Assembly: GCA_034408875.1 (NCBI GenBank) | Contig: JAWXCJ010000340.1 | Span: 1-22,686 of the forward strand | DNA length: 22,686 bases | Source: Actinomycetota bacterium | GTDB lineage: Bacteria; Actinomycetota; Acidimicrobiia; IMCC26256; PALSA-610 | Direction: 5' to 3' | Shown: piece after piece, positions 2,080 through 22,179 of the stretch | Layout: each line of letters starts with the position of its first letter | How positions within the stretch are numbered: position 1 is the first letter of the stretch | Translations under genes and position numbers: made by a program | The notes under the pieces: model-generated | What the model saw: only the letters and a program-made list of their open reading frames with translations | Told to the model about the DNA's origin: nothing | The model's database searches: none

Positions 2080-2146
2080 CTCCCGGACATTTTCGCCTTC
2101 ACGGTTGAAGCCCCGGGCGTAGGGTAAGAACGCCCGGGAGGCCCGC

Positions 2147-3103
2147 GTGGGCACAACTGAACAGCAACTCGACTGGCATGGCGATGCCTTCCGCCACGAG
2201 GCGCTCTTCTACGCGGGCGATCGCGATTACGTACGCCACACCGTGCCGTTCATCGACGCCGGCGTCGCGAACGGCGAACCGGTCCTCGTCCTCGTACCCG
2301 CGTCCAAACTTGCGTTGCTGCGTGAGCACGTTCCCACCCCGGCGCCCGGTGTCGTATTCGGCGACGTGGAGCGCATCGGCCGCAACCCCAACTGCATCAT
2401 CGCGGTGTTCGACCGGTTCGTCGCCGAGCACGCGCGTGACGGTCAACGGGCGCGTGGGATCGGCGAGCCGATCTGGGCGAGCCGAACGCCGGCCGAACTC
2501 GTCGAATGCCAACGGCACGAAGAGCTGATCAACCTCGCGTTCGCCGGCGCGAACGAAGTCTGGATTCTTTGCCCGTTCGACACCGACGCGCTCGACGAAT
2601 CCGTCATCGCCGAAGCGCACCGAAGTCATCCCTGGGTCACCGGCGAGCAGATGGCGCAGCGCAGCGCCGAGTACGTCGACCCCATCAGTGCGTACGACGC
2701 GCCCCTCGCCGAACCTGCGGTGCCGACCGACACGTTTGCATTCGACCGCGCATCGCTCGGGCATCTCCGACAGGTCGTTACCGCCCGGGCGGTCGCACAC
2801 GTCGACGCGGCCGGGGTCGACGAGATCGTGCTTGCCGTCAGCGAGTTCGCGACGAACAGCATTCGTCACGGAGGCGGACGAGGTTCGGTCCGGATATGGA
2901 CCGAAGGTACGGCGTTCGTGTGTGAGATACACGACGACGGGCGCATCACCGATCCGATGATCGGGCGGCGACGCCCGGCCGCAGAGGGAATCGGCGGCCG
3001 CGGCGTATGGCTCGTCAATCACCTGTGTGATCTGGTGCAGATCCGTTCGGCTGATTCCGGAACCGTCGTACGTTTGACCTTCGGAACCGTCGAGCCGACG
3101 TGA
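2147..3103 (+). CDS. MEDS-domain + HATPase_c anti-sigma regulatory factor (RsbA/RsbW-like Ser kinase), GTG start.
   Basis: N-terminus HEALFYAGDRDYVRHTVPFIDAGVANGEPVLVLVPASKLALLREHV matches the MEDS sensory domain signature. C-terminus LAVSEFATNSIRHGGGRGSVRIW...EIHDDGRITDP...GGRGVWLVNHLCDLVQIR is a GHKL/HATPase_c anti-sigma kinase core (N-box, G-boxes). RBS GGGAGG lies 5 nt upstream. Confidence 0.8.
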   Translation: MGTTEQQLDWHGDAFRHEALFYAGDRDYVRHTVPFIDAGVANGEPVLVLVPASKLALLREHVPTPAPGVVFGDVERIGRNPNCIIAVFDRFVAEHARDGQRARGIGEPIWASRTPAELVECQRHEELINLAFAGANEVWILCPFDTDALDESVIAEAHRSHPWVTGEQMAQRSAEYVDPISAYDAPLAEPAVPTDTFAFDRASLGHLRQVVTARAVAHVDAAGVDEIVLAVSEFATNSIRHGGGRGSVRIWTEGTAFVCEIHDDGRITDPMIGRRRPAAEGIGGRGVWLVNHLCDLVQIRSADSGTVVRLTFGTVEPT

Positions 3104-3291
3104 ACCGGCCGCCGTCACCTGCGATCGGAACACGTCGAAGGGCCTGGGAGGATCAGGCACGGGAGCCGGCGAACGCGGTGAGTGTCAGCGTCAGTCGTTC
3201 GGGTCCGCGGACCGCGACCGGGGCAACATACAAGCCAACGGTCTCGTAGAGGCAGGCTGACACGCGCGGCGCGAACGCGCGAGGCTGCGCC

Positions 3292-4449: not shown

Positions 4450-4473
4450 CGGCCGGTCGTCGCCGCAACCGCG

Positions 4474-4502
4474 TTGCACGTCGGGTGAATTAACCTTAGG
4501 GT
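4474..4502 (+). promoter_or_regulatory. Candidate sigma-A-type promoter for P1: TTGCAC - 17 nt - TAGGGT.
   Basis: TTGCAC (4474-4479), a 17-nt spacer, then TAGGGT (4497-4502, TANNNT class) lie about 35 nt upstream of the AGGAGG RBS and ATG 4537. Confidence 0.3.
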
Positions 4503-4536
4503 CGATGAACATCACGACTGCCAGGAGGCCCGCCTG

Positions 4537-5802
4537 ATGGAGGCCGCGCTCGAAGTCCCGAGAACTGCCCGCGCGGCCCGGACGGGCGTGCAGACCGGTG
4601 CACTTGCCCTGGCCGGCCTCGCCTCGCTCGGAGCCGGCGCGATCCACGCGGCCGCGATGGGTGTGCACAACGAGCACGACCAGGCCGTGCTCGCGTTCGG
4701 GATCGTCGCCGCGTTCCAACTCGGTTGGGGCGCCGCCGCGCTGACGTCGAGCAAGCGGTGGGTGGGTGTGGTCGGCGCGGTCGGGAACGCGGCCATCTTC
4801 GCCGGCTGGGTGCTCGCCAAGACGTCTGGTATCTCGTTCGTCGACGGACTCGAGGCGAGCGAGTTGGTGCAGTGGGCCGACGGCGTCGCGGTCGCGTTGG
4901 CCCTGCTGTCCGTCCTGGGTGTGATTGCAGTCGCGGTGCGCGGGCGCCGGCTGCTCAGCTCGCCGACCGCGTTCCCAATCGCGACGGTCGCGATCGCCGC
5001 GATAACCGTGAGCGCGATGGTCTCGGCCGCGAACGGCCACGCGCACGCGGCGGGCGGCGACGGTCACGGGAACGAAGCGACCGCCGCGGCTGCCGGCGAC
5101 GGCCACGGCGACGACCACGGTGACGCGCCGGCGACCGACGCGACCGTCGACCACGGCGACGACCACGGCGACGACCACGTCGACGACCACGTCGAAGCAG
5201 TAGCGAAGCCCTACGACCCCGCCGAGCCGATCGACCTGAGCGGCACCGACGGTGTCACACCCGCCCAGCAGGCCGCGGCCGAGAACCTCATCGCGTCGAC
5301 GTTGCTCGACTTGCCGCGCTGGGCCGATCCCGCGACCGCCGAAGCCGAAGGCTGGCAATCGATTCGCGACGGCGCAACCGGTTACGAGCATTACATCAAC
5401 CGATCGCTGATCGGAGACGGTCGTATCCTCGACCCCGACTATCCCGAGTCGCTGGTGTACACGGTCAACCGATCAACCGGGCAGAAGGAACTGGCGGCGG
5501 CCATGTTCATGCTCGAGCCGGGCGCGACACTCGACAACGCACCCAACGTCGGCGGCAACCTCATGCAGTGGCATATCCACAACAACCTGTGCTTCACGGC
5601 CCCACCGGATTCGCGCATCGCGGGTCTTACCAACCCCGACGGCACCTGCAACGCCCCGCTCGTCACGGGAATCCAACTGCCGATGGTGCACGTCTGGATC
5701 AAGTCCCACCCGTGCGGGCCATTCTCCGCGCTCGAAGGAGTCGGTGGCGGGCAAATCAAAGAGGGCGAAGAACGCCTGTGCGACGCCGCTCATGGCGCGT
5801 GA
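4537..5802 (+). CDS. Polytopic membrane protein P1 with a His/Asp-rich linker and a conserved Cys/His C-terminal extracytoplasmic domain. Uncharacterised family; paralogue of the gene at 14095-15276.
   Basis: AGGAGG lies 7 nt before the ATG. The N-terminal ~150 aa contain 4-5 hydrophobic helices with embedded His (IHAAAMGVHNEHD). Next comes GHAHAAGGDGHGNEATAAAAGDGHGDDHGDAPATDATVDHGDDHGDDHVDDHVE. The C-terminal ~170 aa carry motifs AEAEGW, GYEHY, LVY, LEPGA, WHIHNNLCF, MVHVWIKSHPCGPFSA that are shared with P2. Confidence 0.8.
   Translation: MEAALEVPRTARAARTGVQTGALALAGLASLGAGAIHAAAMGVHNEHDQAVLAFGIVAAFQLGWGAAALTSSKRWVGVVGAVGNAAIFAGWVLAKTSGISFVDGLEASELVQWADGVAVALALLSVLGVIAVAVRGRRLLSSPTAFPIATVAIAAITVSAMVSAANGHAHAAGGDGHGNEATAAAAGDGHGDDHGDAPATDATVDHGDDHGDDHVDDHVEAVAKPYDPAEPIDLSGTDGVTPAQQAAAENLIASTLLDLPRWADPATAEAEGWQSIRDGATGYEHYINRSLIGDGRILDPDYPESLVYTVNRSTGQKELAAAMFMLEPGATLDNAPNVGGNLMQWHIHNNLCFTAPPDSRIAGLTNPDGTCNAPLVTGIQLPMVHVWIKSHPCGPFSALEGVGGGQIKEGEERLCDAAHGA
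5035..5196 (+). repeat. In-frame His/Asp-rich low-complexity tract inside P1, including a 12-bp tandem repeat (gaccacggcgac / gaccacgtcgac, about 3.75 copies at 5149-5193).
   Basis: There are 13 His in 54 residues. The DNA shows direct tandem 12-mers encoding (D)DHG / DDHV. Confidence 0.7.
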
Positions 5803-7505: not shown

Positions 7506-9527
7506 GTGTCCATCGTCATCATCGGCGCAGCCGTTGTGTTCGCCGCGTTCGCGGCGCTCGCAGCGCTGCTGTCGATCAACACCATCGGCCCGACCGAAGT
7601 CGGGTTGGTTACCAAGCGCGTCTCGATGAAGAAGCTCGTCGACGACGACCCCATCGCGTTCCACGGCGAAGCCGGCTACCAGGCCGAGATGCTCATGCCG
7701 GGTCTGCGATTCAAGCTGTGGCCGGTCTTCGCGGTGCGCAAGTACCCGTGGGTGCAGGTGCCGGCGGGCGAGATCGGTGTCGTCATCGCGCAGATCGGCA
7801 AGCCGTTGCCGATCGGTGCGAAGAGCGCGGTCTACAAGCCCGAGTTCGCGAACTTTTCCGACCTTGACGCGTTCCGGCACGGCGAGGGTCAGAAGGGTGT
7901 GCAACGGCCGGTGCTTCCCCCGGGAACGCTGATGCCGATCCACCCCGTCGCGTTCATGGTCGTAATCGCGCACCAGGTGTACGGCGTGTCGGTGTCGTCC
8001 GATGTCGCCTCGCGCGCGCAAGCGACCGGCGGAGTGCTGCGACCCGAATCGTTCGGGCTCGCGGCCGAACAACTCCAAGTCATGGTGATCGCGCCGCGCG
8101 GTCCGCAGGACATGATCGGCATCGTCACCGTGCTCGAAGGCGAACCGCAGGAGTCGGGCGACATCGCGAGCCGGCTCGGTGGCTTTGCCGACGAAGCGCG
8201 CATGGAGCACGAGGAAGCCAACAACTCGGAACTGATCGAGAAGCTGCTCGGTTCCAAGAACGTCCTGCACAACAACTACCAGGACTTCCAGGGCTTCCTG
8301 GACGCCGGTGGTCGCATCGGCCTCCAGCATGACCCGCTGTTGTACGGCGCGTACTTGCTGAACCCGTTCCTCGTGCGCGTCGAAATGGTGCCGATGCTCG
8401 TCATCAACCAGGGTGAGGTCGCGGTCATCAAGGCGTACGTCGGTCAGCCGACGCTCGACACTTCCGGTACGGAGTTCAAGTTCGGTTCGATCGTGCGGCC
8501 CGGACACCGTGGTATCTGGCAGGAGCCGTTGCGCACGGGCAAGTACCCGATCAACCCGCGTGTGTACGCGGCGGAGATCGTGCCGACGTCGATCCTCACG
8601 CTCAACTGGGCGCACGCGGTGTCGCAGGCGCACAACCTCGACTCGCAGCTCTCGCCGATCGACGGTAAGAGCAGGGAAGGATTCGTGTTCCGCATCGATC
8701 TCCAGGTGCAGATCCACGTTCCCGACACGCGAGCACCGAAGGTCATCTCGATGGTCGGCACGATGCAGAACCTCGTGAACGAGGTGCTGCAGTCGGCGGT
8801 CGGCAACCACTTCCGGAACACGCTGCAGAGCTTGGAAGCGGTGCGGTTCATCGAGACCCGCCAGCAGGTGCAGCTCAGTGCCTTCGAGGCGATCACCGAG
8901 TACCTCGCGGCCTACGAGGTCGAGACACGCGGCGTCTACATCCAAGACGTCGAGTTCCCGGCCGAGCTGGTCGAGGTGCTGACCACGCGTGAAATCGCGA
9001 ACCAGGAAAAGGTCACCTACGCCGAGCAGGAACGGGCCGAGATCGCGCGTATCGAAATGGCGAAGGCGAAGGGTACGGCCGACATGCAGGCCGAACTGGC
9101 CAAGTCGCAGGTCTCGATCGACATCTCGAGCAACGAAGCGCAGGCGCGCGAAGCGCACGCCCGTGGTGAAGCTGCGTACGTCGAGCTGACCGGTAAGGCC
9201 GAAGCGTCGAAGACCGAAGCCATTGGTCTCGCCGAAGCCAAGGCGGTCGAGGCCCTTGGTCTCGCACGGGCCGAAGGCTTCGAGGCGCAGACGCGTGCGC
9301 TCGGTCAGGCGGCGACGGCACTCGTTGCGGTCGCGAACGCGGTGGCCGAGGGTCGCATCACGATCGTGCCCGAGGTGCTCGTCACCGGTGGCAACGGCGG
9401 CGGTGCGCTCGACGGGCTCGCGGCGACGCTCATGCGTTCCCTCAACAACGGCAACGGTCTCTCGCTCGAAGGCGCGAAGCCGAAGCCGGTCGAGGAAACG
9501 CCGGTCGCGGCGGAGGTCGCCAGCTAA
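7506..9527 (+). CDS. Flotillin-family SPFH/band-7 membrane scaffold protein (FloT/YqiK-like), GTG start.
   Basis: An N-terminal TM (IVIIGAAVVFAAFAALAALLSI) is followed by an SPFH domain and then an Ala/Glu-rich coiled coil (AEQERAEIARIEMAKAKGTADMQAELAKSQ...EAIGLAEAKAVEALGLARAEGFEAQTRALGQAA) typical of flotillins. AGGAGG lies 7 nt upstream of GTG 7506. Confidence 0.8.
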   Translation: MSIVIIGAAVVFAAFAALAALLSINTIGPTEVGLVTKRVSMKKLVDDDPIAFHGEAGYQAEMLMPGLRFKLWPVFAVRKYPWVQVPAGEIGVVIAQIGKPLPIGAKSAVYKPEFANFSDLDAFRHGEGQKGVQRPVLPPGTLMPIHPVAFMVVIAHQVYGVSVSSDVASRAQATGGVLRPESFGLAAEQLQVMVIAPRGPQDMIGIVTVLEGEPQESGDIASRLGGFADEARMEHEEANNSELIEKLLGSKNVLHNNYQDFQGFLDAGGRIGLQHDPLLYGAYLLNPFLVRVEMVPMLVINQGEVAVIKAYVGQPTLDTSGTEFKFGSIVRPGHRGIWQEPLRTGKYPINPRVYAAEIVPTSILTLNWAHAVSQAHNLDSQLSPIDGKSREGFVFRIDLQVQIHVPDTRAPKVISMVGTMQNLVNEVLQSAVGNHFRNTLQSLEAVRFIETRQQVQLSAFEAITEYLAAYEVETRGVYIQDVEFPAELVEVLTTREIANQEKVTYAEQERAEIARIEMAKAKGTADMQAELAKSQVSIDISSNEAQAREAHARGEAAYVELTGKAEASKTEAIGLAEAKAVEALGLARAEGFEAQTRALGQAATALVAVANAVAEGRITIVPEVLVTGGNGGGALDGLAATLMRSLNNGNGLSLEGAKPKPVEETPVAAEVAS

Positions 9528-12892: not shown

Positions 12893-14008
12893 ATGCCGAC
12901 CTTGAACGATGCTGCCCTGACCGACCTGCTCGCCCGGGCCCAGCGCGAAATCGACGAGGGGCACGTCCCTTCGTGTCAGATGGCGCTCGCCCTCGACGGG
13001 GAGGTGATCTTCGAGGCGACGCTCGGTGACGCGGCCCCGGATTCGCGCTACACGATCTTCTCGGCGACGAAGCCGGTCGTCGCCGGGGCGATGTGGATCC
13101 TGATCGGCGAGGGCGCGATCGACGTCGACCGCACCGTCGCCTCGTACATCCCCGAGTTCGCGGCGAACGGCAAGGACGCGATCACCGTCGAGCAGGTGAT
13201 GCTGCACACGTCGGGGTTCCCCCGCGCGCCGTTCGCCGCGCTCGACTGGGACGACCGGGAACGGCGCCTCGCCCGCTTCGACCGGTGGCGGACGAACTGG
13301 GAACCGGGGACGCGCTTCGAGTACCACCCGACGTCGGCCCACTGGGTGCTCGCCGAACTCATCGAACGGGCCTCGGGCATGGACTTCCGCGAGTTCATCA
13401 AGACGCGCATTCTCGACCCGCTCGGACTCACGAAACTGCGCGTCGGTGTTCCCGCCGCGGAGCAGGACGACATCAACGACCTGGTCAGCACCGGCGAGCA
13501 CGCGTCGGCCGAGGAGTTGATGGCGGCCATCGGTATCGCCGAACTGCCGCTCACCGAGGTGACACCCCAGGCGCTGATCGACATGAACGCGCCCGCCGTG
13601 CGCGCCGTCGGTGTGCCCGGCGGTGGTGGAGTGTCGACCGCCGGCGACCTCACCCGCTACTACCAGGCCCTGCTCCACGACCGGGCCGGGCTGTGGAAGC
13701 CGGAGGTCCTGGCCGACGCCAAGACGGCGGTGCGCAACACCTTCCCCGACTACATGGGGACGCCGGCCAACCGCACCCGGGGGCTGGTCGTCGCCGGATC
13801 TGACAATAAGTCCCATATGCGGGGGATGGGTCACACCGTTTCCGCCGGCGCGTTCGGGCACAACGGCGCCGCCGGTCAGATCGCGTGGGCCGACCCCGAA
13901 ACCGGCGTCTCGTTCGCGTATCTCACCGACGGCAACGACCTCCACGAGCTGCGCCAATGGCGGCGTACCTCCGCGTTGGCGAGTCGCGCGGGGAATTGTG
14001 TGACCTGA
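12893..14008 (+). CDS. Serine hydrolase of the beta-lactamase / class-C esterase family. No signal peptide.
   Basis: It contains the S-x-x-K active-site motif (FSATKPV), Y-x-x motifs and the C-terminal H-x-G (GHNGAAGQIAW) typical of PBP-fold class-C beta-lactamase/EstB esterases. The ORF-track N-terminal extension (from 12725) is Arg/Pro-rich and overlaps the divergent upstream gene, so I use ATG 12893 (MPTLNDAALTDLL). Confidence 0.7.
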   Translation: MPTLNDAALTDLLARAQREIDEGHVPSCQMALALDGEVIFEATLGDAAPDSRYTIFSATKPVVAGAMWILIGEGAIDVDRTVASYIPEFAANGKDAITVEQVMLHTSGFPRAPFAALDWDDRERRLARFDRWRTNWEPGTRFEYHPTSAHWVLAELIERASGMDFREFIKTRILDPLGLTKLRVGVPAAEQDDINDLVSTGEHASAEELMAAIGIAELPLTEVTPQALIDMNAPAVRAVGVPGGGGVSTAGDLTRYYQALLHDRAGLWKPEVLADAKTAVRNTFPDYMGTPANRTRGLVVAGSDNKSHMRGMGHTVSAGAFGHNGAAGQIAWADPETGVSFAYLTDGNDLHELRQWRRTSALASRAGNCVT

Positions 14009-14011
14009 CAG

Positions 14012-14039
14012 TTGCGCAGGGGTGCGCGACTCGTAAGAT
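14012..14039 (+). promoter_or_regulatory. Candidate promoter for P2: TTGCGC - 16 nt - TAAGAT. It is immediately followed by the TTGCAC-N5-GTGCAC inverted repeat.
   Basis: The -35/-10-like pair lies in the 86-bp gap before P2. The palindromic TTGCACtgctcGTGCAC (14039-14055) overlaps the predicted TSS region. Confidence 0.25.
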
Positions 14040-14094
14040 TGCACTGCTCGTGCACACCACCTTCGTGCGCGGTGTTTCCAATGGGGGGAACCGA

Positions 14095-15276
14095 GTGGAC
14101 GTTCGCAAGGTCGGAATCTGGATGGTCGCCGTCGGCGGCGCCGCACTCTCGGTCGGAATCGTGCTCGACGCGATCCAGCAGGCCGACGACCCGACGCTCG
14201 CGTCGAAGGAAGGGATCTTCGACCTTTCCCGCTTCGCGCACGCGTTGTTTTTCGGCGGCATGGCTGTCGCTGTGCTCGGGTTGTTTGCGTTGCTCGTCGG
14301 TGCGCACCTCTACGGCGGCGAGGGACGCGTCACGGTCGGACGCCGCATCATGCAGGTCGGTGCGCCGATCGCGGCAGTCATCGTGCTCGGGGCGACGGCC
14401 GCAGCCGCGAGCAACACCGCGTTGGGTGAACCGAACGGCGACGCGGCCGCGACCGAAGAAGTTGCCACAGCGGAGGCCGATGCCGCCGCGACCGACGAGA
14501 TGGCGGAGCACGCCCACGGTGACGAAGCCACCGCGGCCGACGCGACTGGTGAAACCAGCGAGCACGCGCACGGTCCCGTCATCGAAGGCACCGCGACCGG
14601 CGACTCGCCGTGCGAGGTCGCGTCACCGACTCCCGCGTCACCCGGTCAGGTCGGTACCGGTGAAGGTGGATCCGAAGAAGTGATCGGCGAGCACGGCGGC
14701 CGCGGCATGGTGAAGCAGACGCCGCTCACCGCCGACGAAATGCAGGCGCTTCAGGAGCAGATGGTCCAGGCCCGCACCGTCATCGAAAAGTACCCGACCG
14801 TCGCCGACGCCGAAGCGGGCGGCTACCACAAGTCGACCGTGTACGTGCCGTGCATCGGTGCGCACTACACGAATATCGCGCTCGTGCCCGGGTTCGACCC
14901 GACCGCGCCTTCGGAGTTGCTCTACGACGGTTCGACGCCCGACGCCAAGATCGTCGGCCTCAGCTACCTCGTCCTCGAACCGAGCGGGGAACCGCCCGAA
15001 GGTTTCGCCGGCAAGAACGACCACTGGCACCAGCACAACGCCAACGGCGGGCTCTGCTTCGGAGCCGGCCAGGTCGTCATCGGCGGCGAGGAGATGACCG
15101 AGGAAGAGTGCACCGAGATCGGCGGCACCAAGCGCGAGCTCACGAACATCTGGATGATGCACGCGTGGGTCGTCCCCGGCTTCGAATGCAGCTGGGGCGT
15201 CTTCGCCGGTGAGTGTCCCGAACTCGGTGGCCGCGCCGGCGGCACCGCCTGGGACGAACCCGCCCCCGCCAGCTAA
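14095..15276 (+). CDS. Membrane protein P2, a paralogue of P1: TM N-terminus, acidic/His-containing linker with two EHAHG motifs, conserved Cys/His C-terminal domain. Start uncertain (GTG 14095 or ATG 14119).
   Basis: The C-terminal domain aligns with P1: ADAEAGGY/AEAEGW, GAHYTN/GYEHYIN, SELLYD/ESLVYT, LVLEPSG/FMLEPGA, DHWHQHNANGGLCF/MQWHIHNNLCF, MMHAWVVPGFECSWGVFAGE/MVHVWIKSHPCGPFSALEG. The ORF-track start at 13885 overlaps the hydrolase and is rejected. Confidence 0.7.
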   Translation: MDVRKVGIWMVAVGGAALSVGIVLDAIQQADDPTLASKEGIFDLSRFAHALFFGGMAVAVLGLFALLVGAHLYGGEGRVTVGRRIMQVGAPIAAVIVLGATAAAASNTALGEPNGDAAATEEVATAEADAAATDEMAEHAHGDEATAADATGETSEHAHGPVIEGTATGDSPCEVASPTPASPGQVGTGEGGSEEVIGEHGGRGMVKQTPLTADEMQALQEQMVQARTVIEKYPTVADAEAGGYHKSTVYVPCIGAHYTNIALVPGFDPTAPSELLYDGSTPDAKIVGLSYLVLEPSGEPPEGFAGKNDHWHQHNANGGLCFGAGQVVIGGEEMTEEECTEIGGTKRELTNIWMMHAWVVPGFECSWGVFAGECPELGGRAGGTAWDEPAPAS

Positions 15277-15977
15277 CCCAACGGCGACCAGTTCGCGCTG
15301 CGCAACAACCGGCTCTGCCAGTCGTCGCGGACTTCGAGCGCGTCGTGCATCCACGTGCCGGGTTCCTTCACGCGCGCGGGGAGTTCGTGGGTGAACAGCG
15401 CGGGCAGCCGCTCGGGGTAGTCGACGCGTTGCCACAGCACGACTTCGCGCCGCCGGGGTGAACCGATCGCGGTCTGGAACACGCCGAGCAGTGTGAGCAG
15501 CGAACGCGTGGTCTGCTGTTCGAGGCTCGGCGCGTAGTGGGTGCGTGCCTTCTCGAGGTACGTGTCGAGCATGCCTTCGTAGGGCCACGCGCTGTCCTGC
15601 ATGTAGAGGACGGGGTCGTGTTCGCGCCCGTCGGTCGGCACCGCCGCCAGGTCGATCTCCCGGAGTGGCGACCACTCGACGGCGAGGAGCACCTTCCCGC
15701 GCACCTCGTGGCGCATGCGGTCGGTGTCGGCGGCCCACGACCGCAGGTCGCCGCGCTGCACCCGTTCGGCCAGGCGCTCGTACGCGTTCCCGTCGCGCAG
15801 GGCGGTGATCGTGACTACGTGGTACGCCCGGCCGGTGCCGTGGGCGATCCGCAGGAAGTAGAGGAGCCGCGCCCCGTCGTCTTCGGCGACCTCGGGCATG
15901 AAGCCCTCGCGGAACGTCCGCTCGAAGGCTTCCTCGTGGCGTCCGGCCACGGTGTGGAGCTCGTGCAGGAACAACAT
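15273..15977 (-). CDS. Tandem NIPSNAP/Dabb-like (ferredoxin-like alpha+beta barrel) protein.
   Basis: Two repeats, MLFLHELHTVAGRHEEAFERTFREGFMPEVAEDDGARLLYFLRIAHGTGRAYHVVTITALRDGNAYERLAERV and PVLYMQDSAWPYEGMLDTYLEKARTHYAPSLEQ..., follow the NIPSNAP pattern (hydrophobic strand, G..E.F, late aromatic, h.a.s..a.e.). ATG at 15977 was chosen because the upstream ORF-track extension is low-complexity. Confidence 0.45.
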   Translation of the reverse strand: MLFLHELHTVAGRHEEAFERTFREGFMPEVAEDDGARLLYFLRIAHGTGRAYHVVTITALRDGNAYERLAERVQRGDLRSWAADTDRMRHEVRGKVLLAVEWSPLREIDLAAVPTDGREHDPVLYMQDSAWPYEGMLDTYLEKARTHYAPSLEQQTTRSLLTLLGVFQTAIGSPRRREVVLWQRVDYPERLPALFTHELPARVKEPGTWMHDALEVRDDWQSRLLRSANWSPLG

Positions 15978-16071
15978 GGTGGGGCAGCCTCGCGCAATTC
16001 GGACACCGGCTCGACTCCGTGCCCCGACAACGGGGTTCACCGGGTCGCCCGAGACGCCGATCACTTCCGGG

Positions 16072-18642
16072 ATGGGCGATTCGCGGCGTCGGGAGTTGGT
16101 CGGGATGCACCCGGACCCCGTCGCGCTCGTCGCCCTCTCGCCGTCGCTCACCGCGGTCCTCGACGCCGACGGGGTGCCCCGCTACCTGAGCCCGAGCGCG
16201 GCGGCCCTGTTCGACACGGTGCACCCCGACGACACGACGGTGCTGGAGACCGCGTTCGCCGAAGCCGTCCTGCACCCGGGCCGGGCGGTGCCGGTGCACT
16301 TCCGTGCGCATGCCGGCGGCCGGATGCGGCACCTTGCCGGGCAGTTTCTCAACCGCGTCGAAGACCCGCGTGTCGGTGGGGTCGTGTTGCACCTCACCGA
16401 CGTCAGCTCGGAGTCGACGCTCGCGGTCATCGCACGCGACTTCATGGACCGCGGCCGGCACGACCTCGATGCGTGCGTTGTCGACGCGCTCGCCGCACTG
16501 GCCGACCTCGCCGATGCCGATCGTGCCGCGGTGTTCCACGTCCGCGAGAACGGGTTGGCCGCCGAACTCACCCACGAGTGGTGCCGTGACCCGAGCACGA
16601 GCCGCGCGGGCGACTATCAGAACGTGCCGCTCGACTTGGTGCCGCGCCTCGTCGACCTCCTGCTCGACCTCCGCACGACCGTGATCAACATCGCGGAGCG
16701 GCCCGAGTTCGCGGCGGACGCGGCTGCGATCGGCGCGGCGGACACCCGGTCGTGCGCGCTCGCGCCGCTGATCGTCGATGGTCGTCTGGTCGGATGCGTC
16801 GCGCTCGAGTTCATCGGCCGCGAACGCGCGTGGCAGTCGGCCACGCTGTCGCTCCTCGACCAGTTCGCGCCGGTGTTGTCGTCCGCACTGGAGCGGCGCC
16901 GCATCGAGCGCGAGTTCCGCGACGCGCAAACACGATTCGAACAGGCGTGGAAACACGCGCCCATCGGCATGGTCATGCTGTCCCGCGAGGGTGAGTTGCT
17001 ACGGGTAAACCCGGCGTTCTGCGAACTGCTCGGCTACCGCGAGTGGGAGCTGATCGGCGCGCCGTTTCCCGAGCTGCTGCACCCCACCGACCTCCGTGAG
17101 TACGAGGCCAACGTCGCGCGGCTCGACGCGGGCGAGGACGATCGGCTGCAACTGGAACTCCGGTTCGGTCGCCGCGTGCCGGGCGAGTCGGGGGAAGACG
17201 GGACGTGGTGCCGGGTCAGCTTGTCGCTCGTGCGCGACGACGACCGCGAGCGCACCTATCTCATCGGGCAGATCGAAGACGTCACGCAACGCCGCGAGTT
17301 CGAAGCACGTCTCGAGTACGAGGCGACGCACGACGCGCTCACCGGGCTGCCACAGCGCAACACACTCCTCGAAAGTCTCGAACGAGCGCTGGCCGGCGCG
17401 ACGCGCCGAGGCGACAACGTCGCGGTGTTGTTCATCGACGTCGACAACTTCAAGCGTGTGAACGACACGCTCGGGCACGCCGCGGGCGACGAGTTGCTCC
17501 AGTCGTTCGCCGGGAGGCTGTCGCGCGCAGTGCGCGCGTCGGACATGGCGGCCCGGCTCGGCGGGGACGAGTTCGTCGTCATGTGCACCGACCTTGCCGA
17601 CCCCCGCCAGGTCGTGCGGGTCGCCCAACGGATCCTGCACCTCGTCGAGCAACCGTTCCGCGTACGCGGCGTCGAGGTGTTCGTCGGCGCGAGTATTGGC
17701 ATCGCCGTCGCCGAGTCCGGTGTCGACGCGGCGACGCTGCTGCGCCACGCGGACACCGCGGCGTACCGGGCCAAGGACCGGGGCCGGAACCGGTACGAGA
17801 TCTTCGACGACGAACTCCGCGCCGCGGTCGCGCGCCGGCTCGAGACCGAAACCGCGCTGCGCCGGGCGATCGAAGACGACGAACATCGTCTGCATTTCCA
17901 GCCGATCATCGACGTGTCGTCGGGCCGGGTGGCGGCGTTCGAGGTGCTCGGCCGTTGGGACGACGACCGGCACGGTTCCGAGCGCTCTCACGATTTCCAG
18001 ACGATCGCCGAGGAAACCGGCCTCGTTGTCGCGATCGGCAAGCGGCTCATCCACGACGCGTGCGAACAGCTCGCCCGGTGGCAACGCACCTTCCGTGACG
18101 ACGCGCCGGGCATCTCGATCAACATCTCGGCCCGGCAGCTTGCGCATCCGTCGCTGCTCGACGACACCCGCGCCGCGTTGCGCAAGACGGGAGCCCGGGC
18201 GGCCGACCTGACGTTCGAGATTTCCGAGAGCGTGCTCATGGACGACACGCAGACGAGCATCGCCCGGCTCGAAGAGCTGCGCGCGCTCGGAGTGCGCATT
18301 GCCATCGACGACTTCGGCGCCGGCTATTCGTCGCTCAGCTATCTCCGCCGGTTACCGGTCGACGCCATCAAGATCAATCACGCGTTTGTCGTCGAGCTCG
18401 GTATCGACCACGACGGCTCGACGATCGTCGCGGCGGTGATCAACCTCGCGCGCGCGCTGGGTTTGGACATCGCCGCCGACGGTGTCGAAAGCATCGAACA
18501 CGTCGCGGCTCTGGTCACGCTCGGCTGCGACCGCATGCAGGGTGGATACTTCTCGGTTCCGCTGAACGAGGCGGATGCCACCGAGATGTTGCGCTGCCCG
18601 GTGCGTCAGGACTTGCCGGGGCCGACCACGTCGAGCACGTAG
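16072..18642 (+). CDS. Multidomain c-di-GMP signalling protein: PAS - GAF - PAS - GGDEF - EAL. Start uncertain (ATG 16072 or 16105).
   Basis: The GGDEF domain has an intact RLGGDEFVV signature with upstream DALTGLPQRN and FIDVDNFKRVND. The EAL domain has LHFQPIID, E-V-L, DDFGAGYSSLSYLRRLPVDAIKI and QGGYFSVP. N-terminal PAS-like and GAF-like segments are present (e.g. IGMVMLSREGELLRVNPAFCELLGY). The ORF-track start at 15898 overlaps the divergent NIPSNAP gene and is rejected. Confidence 0.8.
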   Translation: MGDSRRRELVGMHPDPVALVALSPSLTAVLDADGVPRYLSPSAAALFDTVHPDDTTVLETAFAEAVLHPGRAVPVHFRAHAGGRMRHLAGQFLNRVEDPRVGGVVLHLTDVSSESTLAVIARDFMDRGRHDLDACVVDALAALADLADADRAAVFHVRENGLAAELTHEWCRDPSTSRAGDYQNVPLDLVPRLVDLLLDLRTTVINIAERPEFAADAAAIGAADTRSCALAPLIVDGRLVGCVALEFIGRERAWQSATLSLLDQFAPVLSSALERRRIEREFRDAQTRFEQAWKHAPIGMVMLSREGELLRVNPAFCELLGYREWELIGAPFPELLHPTDLREYEANVARLDAGEDDRLQLELRFGRRVPGESGEDGTWCRVSLSLVRDDDRERTYLIGQIEDVTQRREFEARLEYEATHDALTGLPQRNTLLESLERALAGATRRGDNVAVLFIDVDNFKRVNDTLGHAAGDELLQSFAGRLSRAVRASDMAARLGGDEFVVMCTDLADPRQVVRVAQRILHLVEQPFRVRGVEVFVGASIGIAVAESGVDAATLLRHADTAAYRAKDRGRNRYEIFDDELRAAVARRLETETALRRAIEDDEHRLHFQPIIDVSSGRVAAFEVLGRWDDDRHGSERSHDFQTIAEETGLVVAIGKRLIHDACEQLARWQRTFRDDAPGISINISARQLAHPSLLDDTRAALRKTGARAADLTFEISESVLMDDTQTSIARLEELRALGVRIAIDDFGAGYSSLSYLRRLPVDAIKINHAFVVELGIDHDGSTIVAAVINLARALGLDIAADGVESIEHVAALVTLGCDRMQGGYFSVPLNEADATEMLRCPVRQDLPGPTTSST

Positions 18643-19760
18643 TCGATCGACGCGGTCAGCGCCCGCACGTCTTCGGGTTCGATCGCGGGGAAGAGCGCGA
18701 TACGAAGCTGGTTGCGGCCCAGCTTGCGGTACGGCTCGACGTCGAGGATGCCGTTCGCACGGAGTACCGCGGCGAGCGCGGCGGCGTCGACCGTGTCGTC
18801 GAAGTCGATCGTCGCGGTGACCGGGCTGCGGTAGTCGGCGTCTTTCACGAACGGCGTCGCGTGTGCGTGCGTCGCGGCCCAGCCGTACACGATGCCGGCG
18901 GAGGTGTTGCAGCGGCCGGTTGCCCAGGAGAGGCCTCCCTGCGCGAGCATCCAGTCGACCTGATTCGCAAGCAGGAAGAGGGTCGCGAGCGCGGGCGTGT
19001 TGTACGTCTGGTCGAGTCGCGAGTTCTCGAGCGCGATGGCGAGGTCGAGGGTCGGGGGCGTCCAGCGGCCCGACGCGTGGATCGACTCGATGCGGGCGAT
19101 CGCCGCGGGTGAACACAGCGCGATCCAGATACCGGCGTCGGTCGCGAAGCACTTCTGTGGCGCGAAGTAGTAGGCGTCGAAGTCGGCCGGGTCGACCGCC
19201 ATGCCGCCCGCGGCCGACGTCGCGTCGACGAGGACGAGGGCATCGACGAGGACGAGGGCGTCGCCGAGCGGCCGGTGCACCGGCACCGTCACGCCCGTCG
19301 ACGTCTCGTTCTGTGGGTACGCGTACGCGTCGCCGTTGACAACGTCGAGGCGGGCGGGCGTGCCGCCGGGTTCCGACTCGACGACTTCGGGGTCTTCGAG
19401 GTGCGGTGCATTGCGGGTCACCGCCGCGAACTTCGACGAGAACTCGCCGAGCACGAGGTGTGAGCTGCGCCGTTCGATCAGTCCGAACGCGGCCGCATCC
19501 CAGAACTGGGTCGAACCGCCGTTGCCGAGCAGCACCTCGTAGCCGTCGGGGAGTCCGAACAGCGACGCCATGCCCGTGCGCATGCGGCCGACGACCGAAC
19601 GGACCGTCGAGTGCCGGTGGCTGGTACCGAGGTATTTCGGCGCGGCGTCGGCGAGTGCGGCCACGGCGTCGTGGCGCACCTTCGACGGCCCCGACCCGAA
19701 CCGCCCGTCGTTCGGGAGCAGCGCAGCCGGGATGACGATCTCGGGGGTGCTCACGTTCAT
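18606..19760 (-). CDS. serC: Phosphoserine aminotransferase (actinobacterial-type SerC). It contains an in-frame 6-aa tandem duplication.
   Basis: 384 aa: GRFGSGPSKV...LLGNGGSTQFWDAA...VLVDATSAAGG...YFAPQKCFATDAGIWIAL... matches class-V aminotransferase SerC, with the PLP-Lys in the PQKC region. A GGAGG RBS is present. The 3' end overlaps the EAL gene by 37 bp (convergent). Confidence 0.8.
   Translation of the reverse strand: MNVSTPEIVIPAALLPNDGRFGSGPSKVRHDAVAALADAAPKYLGTSHRHSTVRSVVGRMRTGMASLFGLPDGYEVLLGNGGSTQFWDAAAFGLIERRSSHLVLGEFSSKFAAVTRNAPHLEDPEVVESEPGGTPARLDVVNGDAYAYPQNETSTGVTVPVHRPLGDALVLVDALVLVDATSAAGGMAVDPADFDAYYFAPQKCFATDAGIWIALCSPAAIARIESIHASGRWTPPTLDLAIALENSRLDQTYNTPALATLFLLANQVDWMLAQGGLSWATGRCNTSAGIVYGWAATHAHATPFVKDADYRSPVTATIDFDDTVDAAALAAVLRANGILDVEPYRKLGRNQLRIALFPAIEPEDVRALTASIDYVLDVVGPGKS
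19226..19261. repeat. Perfect-but-one 2 x 18-bp tandem direct repeat (cgacgaggacgagggc[a/g]t) inside serC, encoding DALVLV-DALVLV.
   Basis: Seen directly in the sequence. On the coding (-) strand it reads gat gcc ctc gtc ctc gtc twice, immediately before the D-A-T-S active-site strand. Confidence 0.8.
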
Positions 19761-19871: not shown

Positions 19872-21263
19872 CTACGACTGTGCGAGAACCTCGTCAAAAC
19901 CCTCGCGCAGGCACGCGACGAGGGCGGCGGGGTCGGGCACAGCAGTGGTGTCGACGACGACACCGATACAGCACGTGTCGCAGTGCGAGATCAGCGACAC
20001 GTTGACTGCGGCACCCGCCGTCGGGGCGAACGCGTAGAGCCCGTCGACGCGAGAGCCCGCGCTGTACACGGGGATCGGCGCACCGGGAACGTTCGTGGCG
20101 ACGAAGTCGCAGCACTTCAACATGCCGCCGAAGAGCGCGGTCGTCGTAGCCGTGGGCAACCGGTTGAGTATCCCGGCGAGTGTGCTCGTCATCTGGAGCG
20201 CGGGTTCGGCCCGCCAGTCCTTCACCAGCCCGCGCACGCTCTGCATGCGCGCGACAGGAGTCGCCGCGCCCGCGGGCACGGGGAAGCGCGCCGGGGCGAA
20301 GCGATTGCCCCCCTTCTCGTCGGCGCTCGTGCGCAGGTTGATCGGCATCGTCATGCGCAGCGAGTGGAGTTCGGTCCCGTGGCGCTCGTGATACCGGCGC
20401 AGACCACCGACGACCGCGGCGACGAACGCGTCGTTCACGCTGCCCTCTGCGACCTTGGCCGCCCGGCGCAACTCGTCGAGCGAGACTTCGAACATCGCGA
20501 GCTCGCGCGCGAGGCCGCGGTTGCGCATGATCGGTGAGAGCGGCGCCGTGGCGGGAGCCAGTGTGCGCGCGATCGAGCGGGCAGTGCGGACGAACTCCGA
20601 CATGGTGCCGATCGGGTCGCGCAACGCGGTGCCGGTGCCGCGGATCATCGTGCCGGGGACGCGGCTGACGATTCCGACCGTGCGGCGGCGGTTGTGGGCG
20701 AACGAGTCGCGTACGAGGGCCGTGGTGGTGAACGACTCGGGCGCGGGCACGGCCGGCATCGCCGCGTCGGGGTTCGCCACCGGGTCGCGTTCGAGGTCGA
20801 CCAGCTCCGTCAGCAGCGCCATGCCGCCGACGCCGTCGGTGACCGAGTGGTGCACCTTCATCGCGAGGGCGGCGCGACCGCCTTCGAGGCCCTCGATGAG
20901 GGTGAACTCCCAGAGCGGGCGGGCCCGGTCGAACGCGGCGGCGGTGATGGGCCGCAGCACGGCGAGCAACGCCTGTTCGTCGCCCGGCGCGGGCGACCGC
21001 ACCCGGCGCAGGTGGTAGTCGAGATCGAACGACGGCTCGGTCGTCCACCGCGGCGGCGCGATGCGCATCGGCGGTGAGAGCACGCGATCGCGGAAGCGGG
21101 GGATCACGCGCGACGCGCGGTCGACGCGATCGCGCAGCCGCTCCCAGTCGGGTGTCTCCGCGAACGTGGCGACGGCGACGATCGTCGACCGCAGCACCGG
21201 GTCCTTCTCGATGTTCCACATGAGCGCGTCTTCGTCGCTCATGTGACGGGTGGTGGTACTCAT
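19872..21263 (-). CDS. Wax-ester synthase / acyl-CoA:diacylglycerol acyltransferase (WS/DGAT, Tgs family).
   Basis: The HHxxxDG catalytic motif is present (HHSVTDGVGG), and the overall length and sequence match the actinobacterial WS/DGAT pattern. Start ATG is at 21263 (MSTTTRHMSDEDALMW) or 21242. The upstream ORF-track extension is not supported. Confidence 0.75.
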   Translation of the reverse strand: MSTTTRHMSDEDALMWNIEKDPVLRSTIVAVATFAETPDWERLRDRVDRASRVIPRFRDRVLSPPMRIAPPRWTTEPSFDLDYHLRRVRSPAPGDEQALLAVLRPITAAAFDRARPLWEFTLIEGLEGGRAALAMKVHHSVTDGVGGMALLTELVDLERDPVANPDAAMPAVPAPESFTTTALVRDSFAHNRRRTVGIVSRVPGTMIRGTGTALRDPIGTMSEFVRTARSIARTLAPATAPLSPIMRNRGLARELAMFEVSLDELRRAAKVAEGSVNDAFVAAVVGGLRRYHERHGTELHSLRMTMPINLRTSADEKGGNRFAPARFPVPAGAATPVARMQSVRGLVKDWRAEPALQMTSTLAGILNRLPTATTTALFGGMLKCCDFVATNVPGAPIPVYSAGSRVDGLYAFAPTAGAAVNVSLISHCDTCCIGVVVDTTAVPDPAALVACLREGFDEVLAQS

Positions 21264-21288
21264 ATCGGTCCAGGGTACGGTCACGCAC

Positions 21289-22179
21289 GTGCGCAGTCGA
21301 TACGTGATCACCAACGGGATCCGTCTTCACGTCCTGGAAGCCGGGCCGCCCGCCGGTCCTTTGGTGCTGCTGCTGCACGGCTTTCCCGAACTCGCGCACT
21401 CGTGGCGCCATCAGGTAGAGGCGCTCGGCGCCGCGGGCTACCACACCGTTGCGCCCGACCTGCCCGGCTACGGGCGCTCCGACAAACCCGATGTCGCCTA
21501 CGACTGCGAGTTCATCAACGGCACCCTGGTGGGCCTGGTCGACGCGCTCGGTCACGACCAGTTCGTGGTCGCCGGTCACGACTGGGGCGGCATCCTCGCG
21601 TGGACGATGGCGCGTCAGTTTCCCGACCGCGTCGCGGGGGTTATCGGTGTGAACACCCCCGACCTGCCGCGCGGGCCGATCCCACCCGTGCAGATGTTGC
21701 GGATGATCTTTCCGGACACGCCGATCTACATCATCGGTTTCCAGGATCGCTACGTCGCCGAATGGGTGTTGTCATGGGGGCGGGGCGCCGACGACTTCAT
21801 CGACATGATGTTCCGCAACGCGACAGTGAAGAACGCGGATGCGTTCCCCGACGACGTGCTCGAGGTCTACAAGGAAGCGTTCCGGCCCGCGGGCGCGCTC
21901 ACACCACCGATCGAGTACTACCGAAACCTCGACCGCAACTGGGAGCTCACCGCGTCGATCGCGGAGAACAAGATCGAGGTCCCGTGCCTGATGATCTGCG
22001 CGGCCGACGACCCCGTCCTCCCGCCGGCGCTGAGTGAAGGCATGGAAGAACGCGTCCCCAACCTCGAGCGCGTCATCATCGAGAACTGCGGCCACTGGAC
22101 CCAACAAGAACGCCCCGAAGAAACCAGCGCCGCCATCCTCACGTACCTCACCCGCGAACACCCAAGGATGCGTCGATAG
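21289..22179 (+). CDS. Alpha/beta-hydrolase fold protein, epoxide-hydrolase-like. GTG 21289 is preferred; the alternative ATG 21250 would overlap the divergent WS/DGAT start.
   Basis: The N-terminal signature NGIRLHVLEAGPPAGPLVLLLHGFPELAHSWRHQVEALGAAGYHTVAPDLPGYGRSDKP and the nucleophile elbow VAGHDWGG (Asp nucleophile, as in epoxide hydrolases/haloalkane dehalogenases) match. The C-terminal IIENCGHWTQQERPEE carries the catalytic His. Confidence 0.7.
   Translation: MRSRYVITNGIRLHVLEAGPPAGPLVLLLHGFPELAHSWRHQVEALGAAGYHTVAPDLPGYGRSDKPDVAYDCEFINGTLVGLVDALGHDQFVVAGHDWGGILAWTMARQFPDRVAGVIGVNTPDLPRGPIPPVQMLRMIFPDTPIYIIGFQDRYVAEWVLSWGRGADDFIDMMFRNATVKNADAFPDDVLEVYKEAFRPAGALTPPIEYYRNLDRNWELTASIAENKIEVPCLMICAADDPVLPPALSEGMEERVPNLERVIIENCGHWTQQERPEETSAAILTYLTREHPRMRR

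Follow-up and report, generated by a model that had tools for sequence, protein, structure and literature searches.

The window analysed here is a 22,686-nucleotide stretch of DNA from an Actinomycetota bacterium of the class Acidimicrobiia (GTDB lineage IMCC26256; PALSA-610), positions 1 to 22,686 of contig JAWXCJ010000340.1 in assembly GCA_034408875.1. It encodes P1, a real, uncharacterised membrane protein of Acidimicrobiia, for which a preliminary description made from the letters alone had suggested a role in metal handling. We find that P1 is built of three parts, a five-helix membrane module, a disordered His/Asp-rich tether and an outer domain of ~200 amino acids (the ectodomain), and that the window holds a second gene, P2, with a distantly homologous ectodomain. 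The features of the two genes, in P1 residue numbering for P1, are as follows.

4474-4502, + strand: putative P1 promoter, TTGCAC (4474-4479), 17-nt spacer, TAGGGT (4497-4502); picked out by eye
4523-4528, + strand: Shine-Dalgarno sequence AGGAGG, read 8 nt ahead of the P1 ATG
4537-5802, + strand: P1 gene, ATG start, 421 amino acids plus stop
4594-5046, + strand: membrane module, residues 20-170, with five helices, predicted to run from an inner N-terminus to an outer C-terminus (AlphaFold, hydropathy, invariant columns)
5032-5202, + strand: disordered His/Asp-rich tether, residues 166-222, with HAH, DGHG and DDHG/DDHV repeats (residue counts; predicted local distance difference test score, pLDDT, ~40)
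5203-5799, + strand: ectodomain, residues 223-421, modelled as a long helix at the N-terminus and then a sheet of six strands
5386-5391, + strand: E284-H285 in the first strand; His kept family-wide, Glu in P1-type domains only
5566-5592, + strand: Q344-W-H346-I-H348-N-N-L-C352 motif (alignments)
5683-5697, + strand: M383-V-H385-V-W387, modelled as strand 383-387 and invariant in the family alignment A2
14095-15276, + strand: P2 gene, GTG start, 393 amino acids plus stop; three-helix anchor, acidic linker with EHAHG repeats, ectodomain
14686-15273, + strand: P2 ectodomain, distant homologue of that of P1 (family profile, hhalign)

The P1 open reading frame (ORF) is real: it is present in the ORF list, its frame has a coding-type composition (G+C at third codon positions 0.85, in a window of 68% G+C), and its product is 100% identical to the NCBI entry 'MAG: hypothetical protein [Actinomycetota bacterium]' (MAG, metagenome-assembled genome). 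At least 1,647 homologue clusters exist, every one unnamed and without Pfam domains. The gene is probably transcribed on its own. The putative promoter sits within the 87-nt spacer upstream of P1; a consensus promoter scan made no call of TTGCAC-17-TAGGGT there, and scans for promoters, terminators, Rfam families and tRNAs found nothing. We also considered as an operator candidate the perfect 5-3-5 palindrome GCAACCGCGTTGC (4465-4477), which overlaps the putative -35 element, and dropped it, since it occurs in 0/173 fetched loci and is near chance expectation.

Architecture of P1

Hydropathy analysis reveals five hydrophobic segments in the P1 anchor, and the full-length AlphaFold model (pLDDT 84) places helices at residues 24-43, 48-70, 74-96, 113-135 and 145-165, all five at pLDDT above 90. 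What had been described as a 4-5-helix anchor with intramembrane His residues can thus be given as five helices, with H37 situated within the first. The Arg and Lys residues are found at the N-terminus and in the loops at 71-74 and 135-138, and because of this placement the tether and the ectodomain would, by the positive-inside rule, lie on the outside of the cell. The conserved His, Glu, Asp and Met residues of the module (H37, H44, E46, E109, D115, M161, H168 and H170) are found at its predicted outer face, M161, H168 and H170 being additionally conserved among P1-type modules, while the conserved polar residues Q61 and N84 lie mid-membrane.

The tether that follows was said to hold 13 His in 54 residues. 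The densest window of that length, residues 165-218, contains 9 His and 13 Asp; the count was too high, but the enrichment relative to the other proteins of the window is not random (P = 4e-5 for His, 5e-6 for Asp). A His-rich tether is frequent in the ectodomain family and not obligatory. Among P1-type proteins, the 60 residues ahead of the domain contain a median of 5 His. The ectodomain is also found after lipoprotein signal peptides (lipobox LAAC/LGAC) or single-helix anchors, and several of these alternative forms carry strongly His/Asp- or His/Met-rich linkers, e.g. 'DEHGAEHADSGDHGEHSEETMDHSEETMDHGE', some with MDH-type His-Met repeats. At least 5 His precede the domain in 10/27 proteins of other architectures, and the lipoprotein linkers are often His-poor (median 2 His).

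The ectodomain family and its relation to P2

The outer domain is ~200 amino acids long, rather than about 170 as first estimated, and its family is defined here by A2, an alignment of 36 diverse copies (P1-type copies A and B, and P2-type). Invariant in A2 are H285, P303, H346, H348, L351, C352, C371, M383, H385, W387, C393, G394 and F396. In a broader set of 182 domain copies out of 148 cluster representatives, each of the following is at least 91% conserved: H285, H346, H348 and H385; C352, C371, C393 and C415; M323 and M383; W345 and W387; and E284, D278, D294, D299 and E304. The core of this set (H285, H346-x-H348, C352, C371, M383-x-H385-x-W387 and C393-G-x-F) is present in both P1 and P2 and reaches at least 96% in the 182 copies. 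The His, Cys, Trp and Met motifs originally read from P1 are therefore genuine family motifs, and loss of their His, Cys and Met positions was not seen in these homologues. M383, H385 and W387 alternate along one strand, so that their side chains would share a common face. The four Cys residues are most simply explained as two disulfides of an exported domain, and nothing was found in support of the earlier suggestion of a redox link.

The typical homologue is 610-680 amino acids long and has two tandem domain copies, A and B, with a second His-rich spacer between them; two copies are present in 112/120 best matches. P1 represents a single-ectodomain form, nearest to copy B (52-64% identity, compared with 44-51% to copy A). 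A profile search of 1.84 billion representatives yielded 3,715 clusters at E<=1e-3 and 2,059 at E<=1e-10, and the GTDB species genomes contain 421 ectodomain loci. The best 80 of these 421 loci belong nearly all to MAGs of Acidimicrobiia (Ilumatobacteraceae, Iamiaceae, Microthrixaceae and Acidimicrobiaceae), together with the cultured Desertimonas flava. A tblastn search of plasmids gave no match to either ectodomain, and the larger representatives (up to 943 amino acids) carry no informative fused Pfam domain. In one metagenomic cluster, P0290 (406 amino acids), a Ser/Thr kinase domain, truncated after position 204 of the 263 in its profile, runs directly into the ectodomain, and no transmembrane helix separates the two. 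We consider P0290 to be probably an assembly or gene-call chimera; if true, it would be a sensor kinase employing this ectodomain.

The preliminary description had taken P1 to belong to a genuine family whose motif order fits neither cupredoxin, CopC nor Sco, and both statements hold in the searches made here. P1 and P2 match nothing in Pfam or NCBIfam at E up to 1, 36 diverse ectodomain members give scattered sub-threshold Pfam matches only, and a profile search of all PDB sequences with the ectodomain returned nothing meaningful; in particular, no confident profile match to a characterised family with a non-metal function was seen in Pfam, NCBIfam or the PDB sequences. A model computed from the 36-sequence alignment (pLDDT 87.9; predicted template modelling score 0.85) consists of one long helix, a short helix and six strands, and its best Foldseek match in the PDB has E = 1.2. 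Within these PDB searches, the modelled fold appears to be without a solved-structure relative. P1 has neither the sequence profiles nor the beta-sandwich or thioredoxin folds of cupredoxin, CopC, Sco and PCuAC proteins, and the features of LAS/M23 zinc peptidases (H-x(3-6)-D plus H-x-H in a Hedgehog/DD-peptidase fold) were likewise not found in it. The membrane module, in turn, has no profile match to CopD (PF05425) or to other annotated metal-binding membrane families, and we found no description of either module in the literature.

One weak similarity recurs. DUF1264 (PF06884) matches 4/36 members, all P2-type, with E values of 0.04-0.24 and 11-13 bits; the best score, 12.9 bits, lies far below the 25-bit gathering threshold, and no P1-type member tested matches. 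The three alignments shown cover the same segment, domain residues 70-113 against profile positions 42-82 (strand - loop - W-H-x-H). We note that DUF1264, an uncharacterised family of oil-body-associated proteins, is not known to be exported or metal-binding.

P2 had been introduced as a paralogue of P1 located 8 kb away, with the same tripartite layout and all C-terminal motifs. Sequence comparison indicates that it is a paralogue in the ectodomain only. The C-terminal domains of P1 and P2 match in BLASTP (E 2e-5), the P1 domain profile matches P2-family proteins over almost the whole length of the profile, and comparison of P1-type with P2-type domain profiles by hhalign gives a probability of 96-97% (E 3e-9 to 1e-11). 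The A2 profile detects P1 at E 1e-83 and P2 at E 1.5e-64 to 3e-64 as the sole two copies in the window; since P1 itself and a relative of P2 with 99% identity are members of A2, there is some circularity in these scores, and the hhalign comparison is the independent one. In contrast, the P2 anchor has three hydrophobic segments by hydropathy, shows no cross-matches with the P1 module and reaches an hhalign probability of 1.2%. The three-part layouts of the two proteins would consequently be analogous and not inherited. Nor are all motifs shared: H285, H346-x-H348 and M383-x-H385-x-W387 are kept, whereas E284 is replaced by Ala in P2-type domains, M323 is lost and the last (fourth) Cys lies elsewhere. 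P2-type proteins have extra Cys residues: one stands four positions ahead of the counterpart of H285, another in the conserved linker motif TGDSPCE. For P2, at least 1,114 homologue clusters exist. Its GTG start is preceded by GGGGGAA, and homologues start at the same M/V-D-V-R-K; a 99%-identical database entry (P0121, 439 amino acids) is 46 amino acids longer, from an ATG near 13957 (window 13885-14094), and is probably an over-extension, because both the homologues and GGGGGAA favour the GTG at 14095.

The membrane module and its gene contexts

A search with P1 residues 1-171 returned two kinds of match: broken copies of P1-type genes, and distinct proteins of 158-296 amino acids (P0437-P0446). 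Most database copies of P1's own module that seem to stand alone are frameshifted or truncated and end in Arg/Pro-rich tails, and we did not use them as evidence. P0397, P0400, P0401 and P0408, for instance, begin as P1-type modules and continue into Arg/Pro/Ser-rich tails, a pattern that is typical of high-GC frameshifts and inflates the number of stand-alone modules. The distinct relatives (P0437-P0446), in contrast, score 43-67 bits against the P1-family module profile over positions 8-144 of 148, and have no relative in Pfam, NCBIfam or the PDB. In the alignment that defines the module family (A4), the residues H37, H44, E46, F54, Q61, N84, W91, G98 and D115 are invariant, and P1 has every one of them. 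We conclude from these alignments that the membrane module of P1 constitutes an independent, unannotated family.

A metagenome scan added 80 further module loci, and 67 module ORFs were called over all module loci; lineages were taken as 60% identity clusters, many contigs span a few kb only, and associations with neighbouring genes are given without a formal background model. The P1 ectodomain is absent from 66/67 of these ORFs. Some of the module ORFs that were read end in poly-His or His-Met-Asp tails, e.g. 'GHHHHHHG...HMDGDAHMDADGHMDGDHH...HQHHHDD'. Others continue through a His-rich spacer into a PD40 (TolB-like) beta-propeller (Pfam 1.7e-30; L116:2849-4264, L136:1174-2514 and L121), which is a third type of ectodomain on a P1-type module anchor, and still others through a His-rich spacer into another domain without assignment. 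Neighbour clustering, combined with Pfam checks, identified the following genes among the 67 module loci.

P1B-type ATPases (SEHP; CPH or SPC; YHS domain in the one scanned): 6 loci
Multicopper-oxidase-type genes: 4 loci
ArsR regulators: 5 loci
DUF302 proteins: 5 loci
YNCE-type propeller lipoproteins: 8 loci

In the P0437-0440 group, a pair of genes for an ArsR-type regulator and a cation-diffusion facilitator (CDF) lies two genes upstream in divergent orientation, within what looks like an integrative element; P0441 is flanked by an ArsR and CDF pair and by the chromate-resistance genes ChrB/ChrA; and P0443 comes after two multicopper-oxidase-type genes, its start overlapping by 4 nt the stop of the nearer one, the second. 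In L153, the order on one strand is P1B ATPase, module, a 100-amino-acid ORF and a multicopper oxidase with a twin-arginine (Tat) signal. The association of the module with metal-type genes is real but modest.

Several observations at these loci stand on their own. The cluster at L091:421-3402 and in L092 opens with a 351-amino-acid, two-domain SLAC-like multicopper oxidase with a His/Asp/Met-rich N-terminus, continues with a 468-amino-acid cupredoxin/Cu-oxidase_3 protein and the module gene (4-nt overlap with the stop of the former), and closes with a 214-amino-acid protein that looks like a helix-turn-helix regulator. Small module proteins with extreme poly-His and His-Met-Asp tails occur in L112, L122, L126, L153 and L162 (e.g. 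L162:4259-5152 and L153:1364-2113), with tail motifs such as GHHHHHH..., HMDGDAHMD... and ...HQHHHDD; several of their genes adjoin those for P1B ATPases, DUF302 proteins, YNCE-propeller lipoproteins or multicopper oxidases. The unannotated family of these proteins probably deserves a study of its own.

The surroundings of P1 and P2 themselves are of a different kind. As the preliminary description had it, an arylsulfotransferase-like (ASST-like) protein (Pfam 1e-21) and a serine hydrolase of the beta-lactamase fold (5e-59) are encoded upstream of P1 and P2, respectively, and by reading neither has an N-terminal signal peptide. Neither neighbour is conserved over related loci: the ASST-like gene is found in 0/81 of them and is missing even beside the closest single-domain orthologue (L007), and the beta-lactamase gene is present only in the close relative L003, not in L004 or L005. 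Because of this lack of conservation, the adjacency carries no functional signal. We also set aside the convergent major facilitator superfamily (MFS) gene downstream of P1 as a partner, as it is unrelated to the MFS genes of relatives and reflects coincidence or plain synteny. Around the two-domain orthologues, the gene order (ABC-F, inositol monophosphatase, enoyl-CoA hydratase, family gene, convergent MFS, PEP-utilising enzyme, ABC1) forms a conserved block of housekeeping synteny. In one close relative only (L008:2579-5056), the P1 orthologue is followed at a distance of ~190 nt on the same strand by a P-type ATPase gene, whose product has the motifs DKTGT and GDGVND; by eye it looks like a non-heavy-metal (Ca/Mg-type) pump.

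Elsewhere in the window, 2147-3103 (+) encodes a MEDS sensory domain fused to HATPase_c_2 (RsbW-like anti-sigma factor/kinase; Pfam 2.7e-31 and 3.9e-19); an ORF on the opposite strand (2099-3160) is equally long, with near-equal codon-position GC, and the choice of strand rests on the Pfam match. The product of 7506-9527 (+) is an unusually long SPFH/Band-7 protein of 673 amino acids, in which the SPFH domain covers residues 299-512 only and the flanks (300 and 160 residues) have no Pfam match. Towards the end of the window lie a GAF-PAS-GGDEF-EAL cyclic-di-GMP protein (15898-18642, +), a class-V aminotransferase (18606-19760, -), a WS/DGAT wax-ester synthase (19872-21314, -) and an alpha/beta hydrolase (21250-22179, +). 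The block of aminotransferase, wax-ester synthase and hydrolase is syntenic with P2 homologues in other Acidimicrobiia (L003-L005).

Proposed function of P1

From its sequence and its relatives, we propose with moderate confidence that P1 is an extracytoplasmic protein that handles transition metals, with copper as the best guess for the metal. The earlier proposal of such a role gains from the His, Met and Trp conservation of the ectodomain and from the His tails and metal-gene contexts of the module relatives, while metal binding itself remains an inference. The three parts might work together as follows: (I) the flexible His/Asp tether would collect metal ions near the membrane, (II) the ectodomain would hold one ion at a His/Met/Trp site formed by H285, H346, H348, H385, M383 and W387, and (III) the ion might be exchanged between the ectodomain and a site at the outer face of the module. 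On balance, P1 would then buffer the metal, or pass it to other envelope proteins or receive it from them, and would not be a catalyst. The occurrence of two ectodomains and a second His-rich spacer in most relatives fits such a binding or relay role. Copper is favoured on account of the Met/Trp/His ligands, of the MDH-type repeats that relatives carry, and of neighbouring genes for multicopper oxidases and CPH-type ATPases; zinc, nickel or cobalt may be the metal instead, given the neighbouring CDF proteins and SPC-type ATPases.

Several results weigh against this proposal. No metal-related gene was found near P1 or P2 in the window, or at any of ~80 ectodomain-family loci, where housekeeping synteny only was seen, and sequence scans upstream of P1 found neither a regulator site nor a riboswitch. 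The metal contexts belong to distant relatives of the module (~30-38% identity) and not to the ectodomain, and metal-type neighbours occur in just 4/21 module lineages, many of the contigs being short. The ATPases beside the module are of both the copper type (CPH) and the Co/Zn/Fe type (SPC). Finally, the conserved acidic residues D278, E284, D294, D299 and E304 would also be compatible with an enzyme.

This last point leads to the alternative that survives best, which we nevertheless regard as unlikely: a membrane-anchored metallo-enzyme, hydrolase or oxidase, in which a His-bound metal, with E284 and the conserved Asp/Glu residues, would act on an envelope or external substrate and the tether would be a mere spacer. 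The very strong conservation, the acidic residues beside the His ligands and the compact, well-ordered ectodomain are what such an enzyme would lead one to expect, and the order H-x(n)-D then H-x-H is loosely reminiscent of LAS/M23 zinc peptidases. However, the ectodomain matches no enzyme family in fold or in sequence, P2-type domains have lost E284 and no substrate-related neighbours were found. Tandem copies set apart by His-rich spacers, and linkers made of His-Met repeats, are typical of binding proteins.

P1 might also be a metal importer whose 4-5-helix module, probably as an oligomer, conducts an ion via H37, W91, N84 and Q61, with the tether and ectodomain as its substrate-binding device. 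In favour of import, the module has conserved polar residues at one depth of the bilayer after another, the CopC-CopD fusion YcnJ has an analogous architecture, and the module adjoins exported copper enzymes that need copper. We find import somewhat less likely than catalysis, as no conserved ligands are seen on the cytoplasmic side, the module has only 4-5 helices, and most neighbours serve efflux or resistance (P1B ATPase, CDF, ChrA), which fits detoxification better than uptake. Further down in plausibility, a non-metal role would make P1 an envelope structural or ligand-binding protein with a low-complexity His/Asp spacer and with His residues that are structural or serve a non-metal ligand. 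The lack of metal-gene context for the ectodomain family, the His-poor linkers of many lipoprotein forms and the recurrent sub-threshold match to DUF1264, a family without a known metal role, speak for it; we consider it improbable in view of the four His, the Met and the Trp conserved over very divergent copies, the recurrence of His-rich tethers behind unrelated anchors and the metal-gene contexts of the membrane module. A metal sensor signalling across the membrane, suggested by an extracytoplasmic ligand-type domain on a polytopic anchor and by the one kinase-fused database cluster, is very improbable, since P1 has only ~20 cytoplasmic residues and no output domain, the kinase fusion is itself probably a chimera and no conserved partner regulator lies nearby.

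Read as a metal-handling protein, P1 resembles several known systems in its proposed function, yet lacks the defining features of all of these families. The closest in logic are CopC-CopD, the fused YcnJ of Bacillus subtilis and YobA-YebZ of E. coli: there too, an extracytoplasmic metal-binding domain (predicted in P1) works with a polytopic membrane protein in which His residues are conserved, and capture outside the cell is followed by hand-off to the membrane partner. These systems are often encoded near multicopper oxidases, which also adjoin some relatives of the P1 module. P1 differs from them in that it has no Pfam or fold match to CopC or CopD, its module has 5 helices in place of the 8 of CopD, and its ectodomain does not have the form of an Ig-like beta-sandwich carrying a His site at the N-terminus. 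The predicted ligand set, the M383-x-H385-x-W387 strand and further His residues, is of the same kind as the Cu(I) sites of the CusF type (Met2-His with a Trp cation-pi contact).

The tether, in turn, is like the disordered extracytoplasmic His- (and Met/Asp-) rich segments of the PcoE/SilE sponges and the MDH octapeptide repeats of Pseudomonas CopA/CopB, and MDH-type repeats also occur in the linkers of ectodomain relatives and in module tails. Contrary to PcoE/SilE, the P1 segment tethers two folded, conserved modules and is His/Asp-rich with no Met. Disordered His-rich loops are also described as contributing to zinc binding in PA4063, a small exported alpha+beta protein of periplasmic zinc trafficking; unlike P1, PA4063 is soluble, and it is regulated by zinc limitation (PMC8561739). 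No sequence or structural similarity between PA4063 and P1 was detected.

In sum, both P1 modules are new: they lie outside the curated family libraries (Pfam, NCBIfam) and have no solved structural relative in the PDB. Their analysis defines an ectodomain with ~3,700 clusters and a 4-5-helix His/Glu module encountered repeatedly next to copper oxidases and heavy-metal pumps. Tentatively, and as a possibility rather than an expectation, the module and its His-rich tail could form the core of a previously unrecognised, widespread actinobacterial copper (or other transition-metal) relay at the outer face of the membrane, acting next to multicopper oxidases and P1B ATPases. To this core, Acidimicrobiia would have added a new-fold metal-binding ectodomain, duplicated in most species, and with P1 a new class of envelope metallochaperones or transporters would have its first description. 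Acidimicrobiia abound in freshwater, marine, soil and wastewater communities, and little annotation exists for the metal biology of their envelope. If the metal role is true, P1 would represent a new component of bacterial copper or metal homeostasis and a new metal-site scaffold, and thousands of 'hypothetical proteins' would gain a name.

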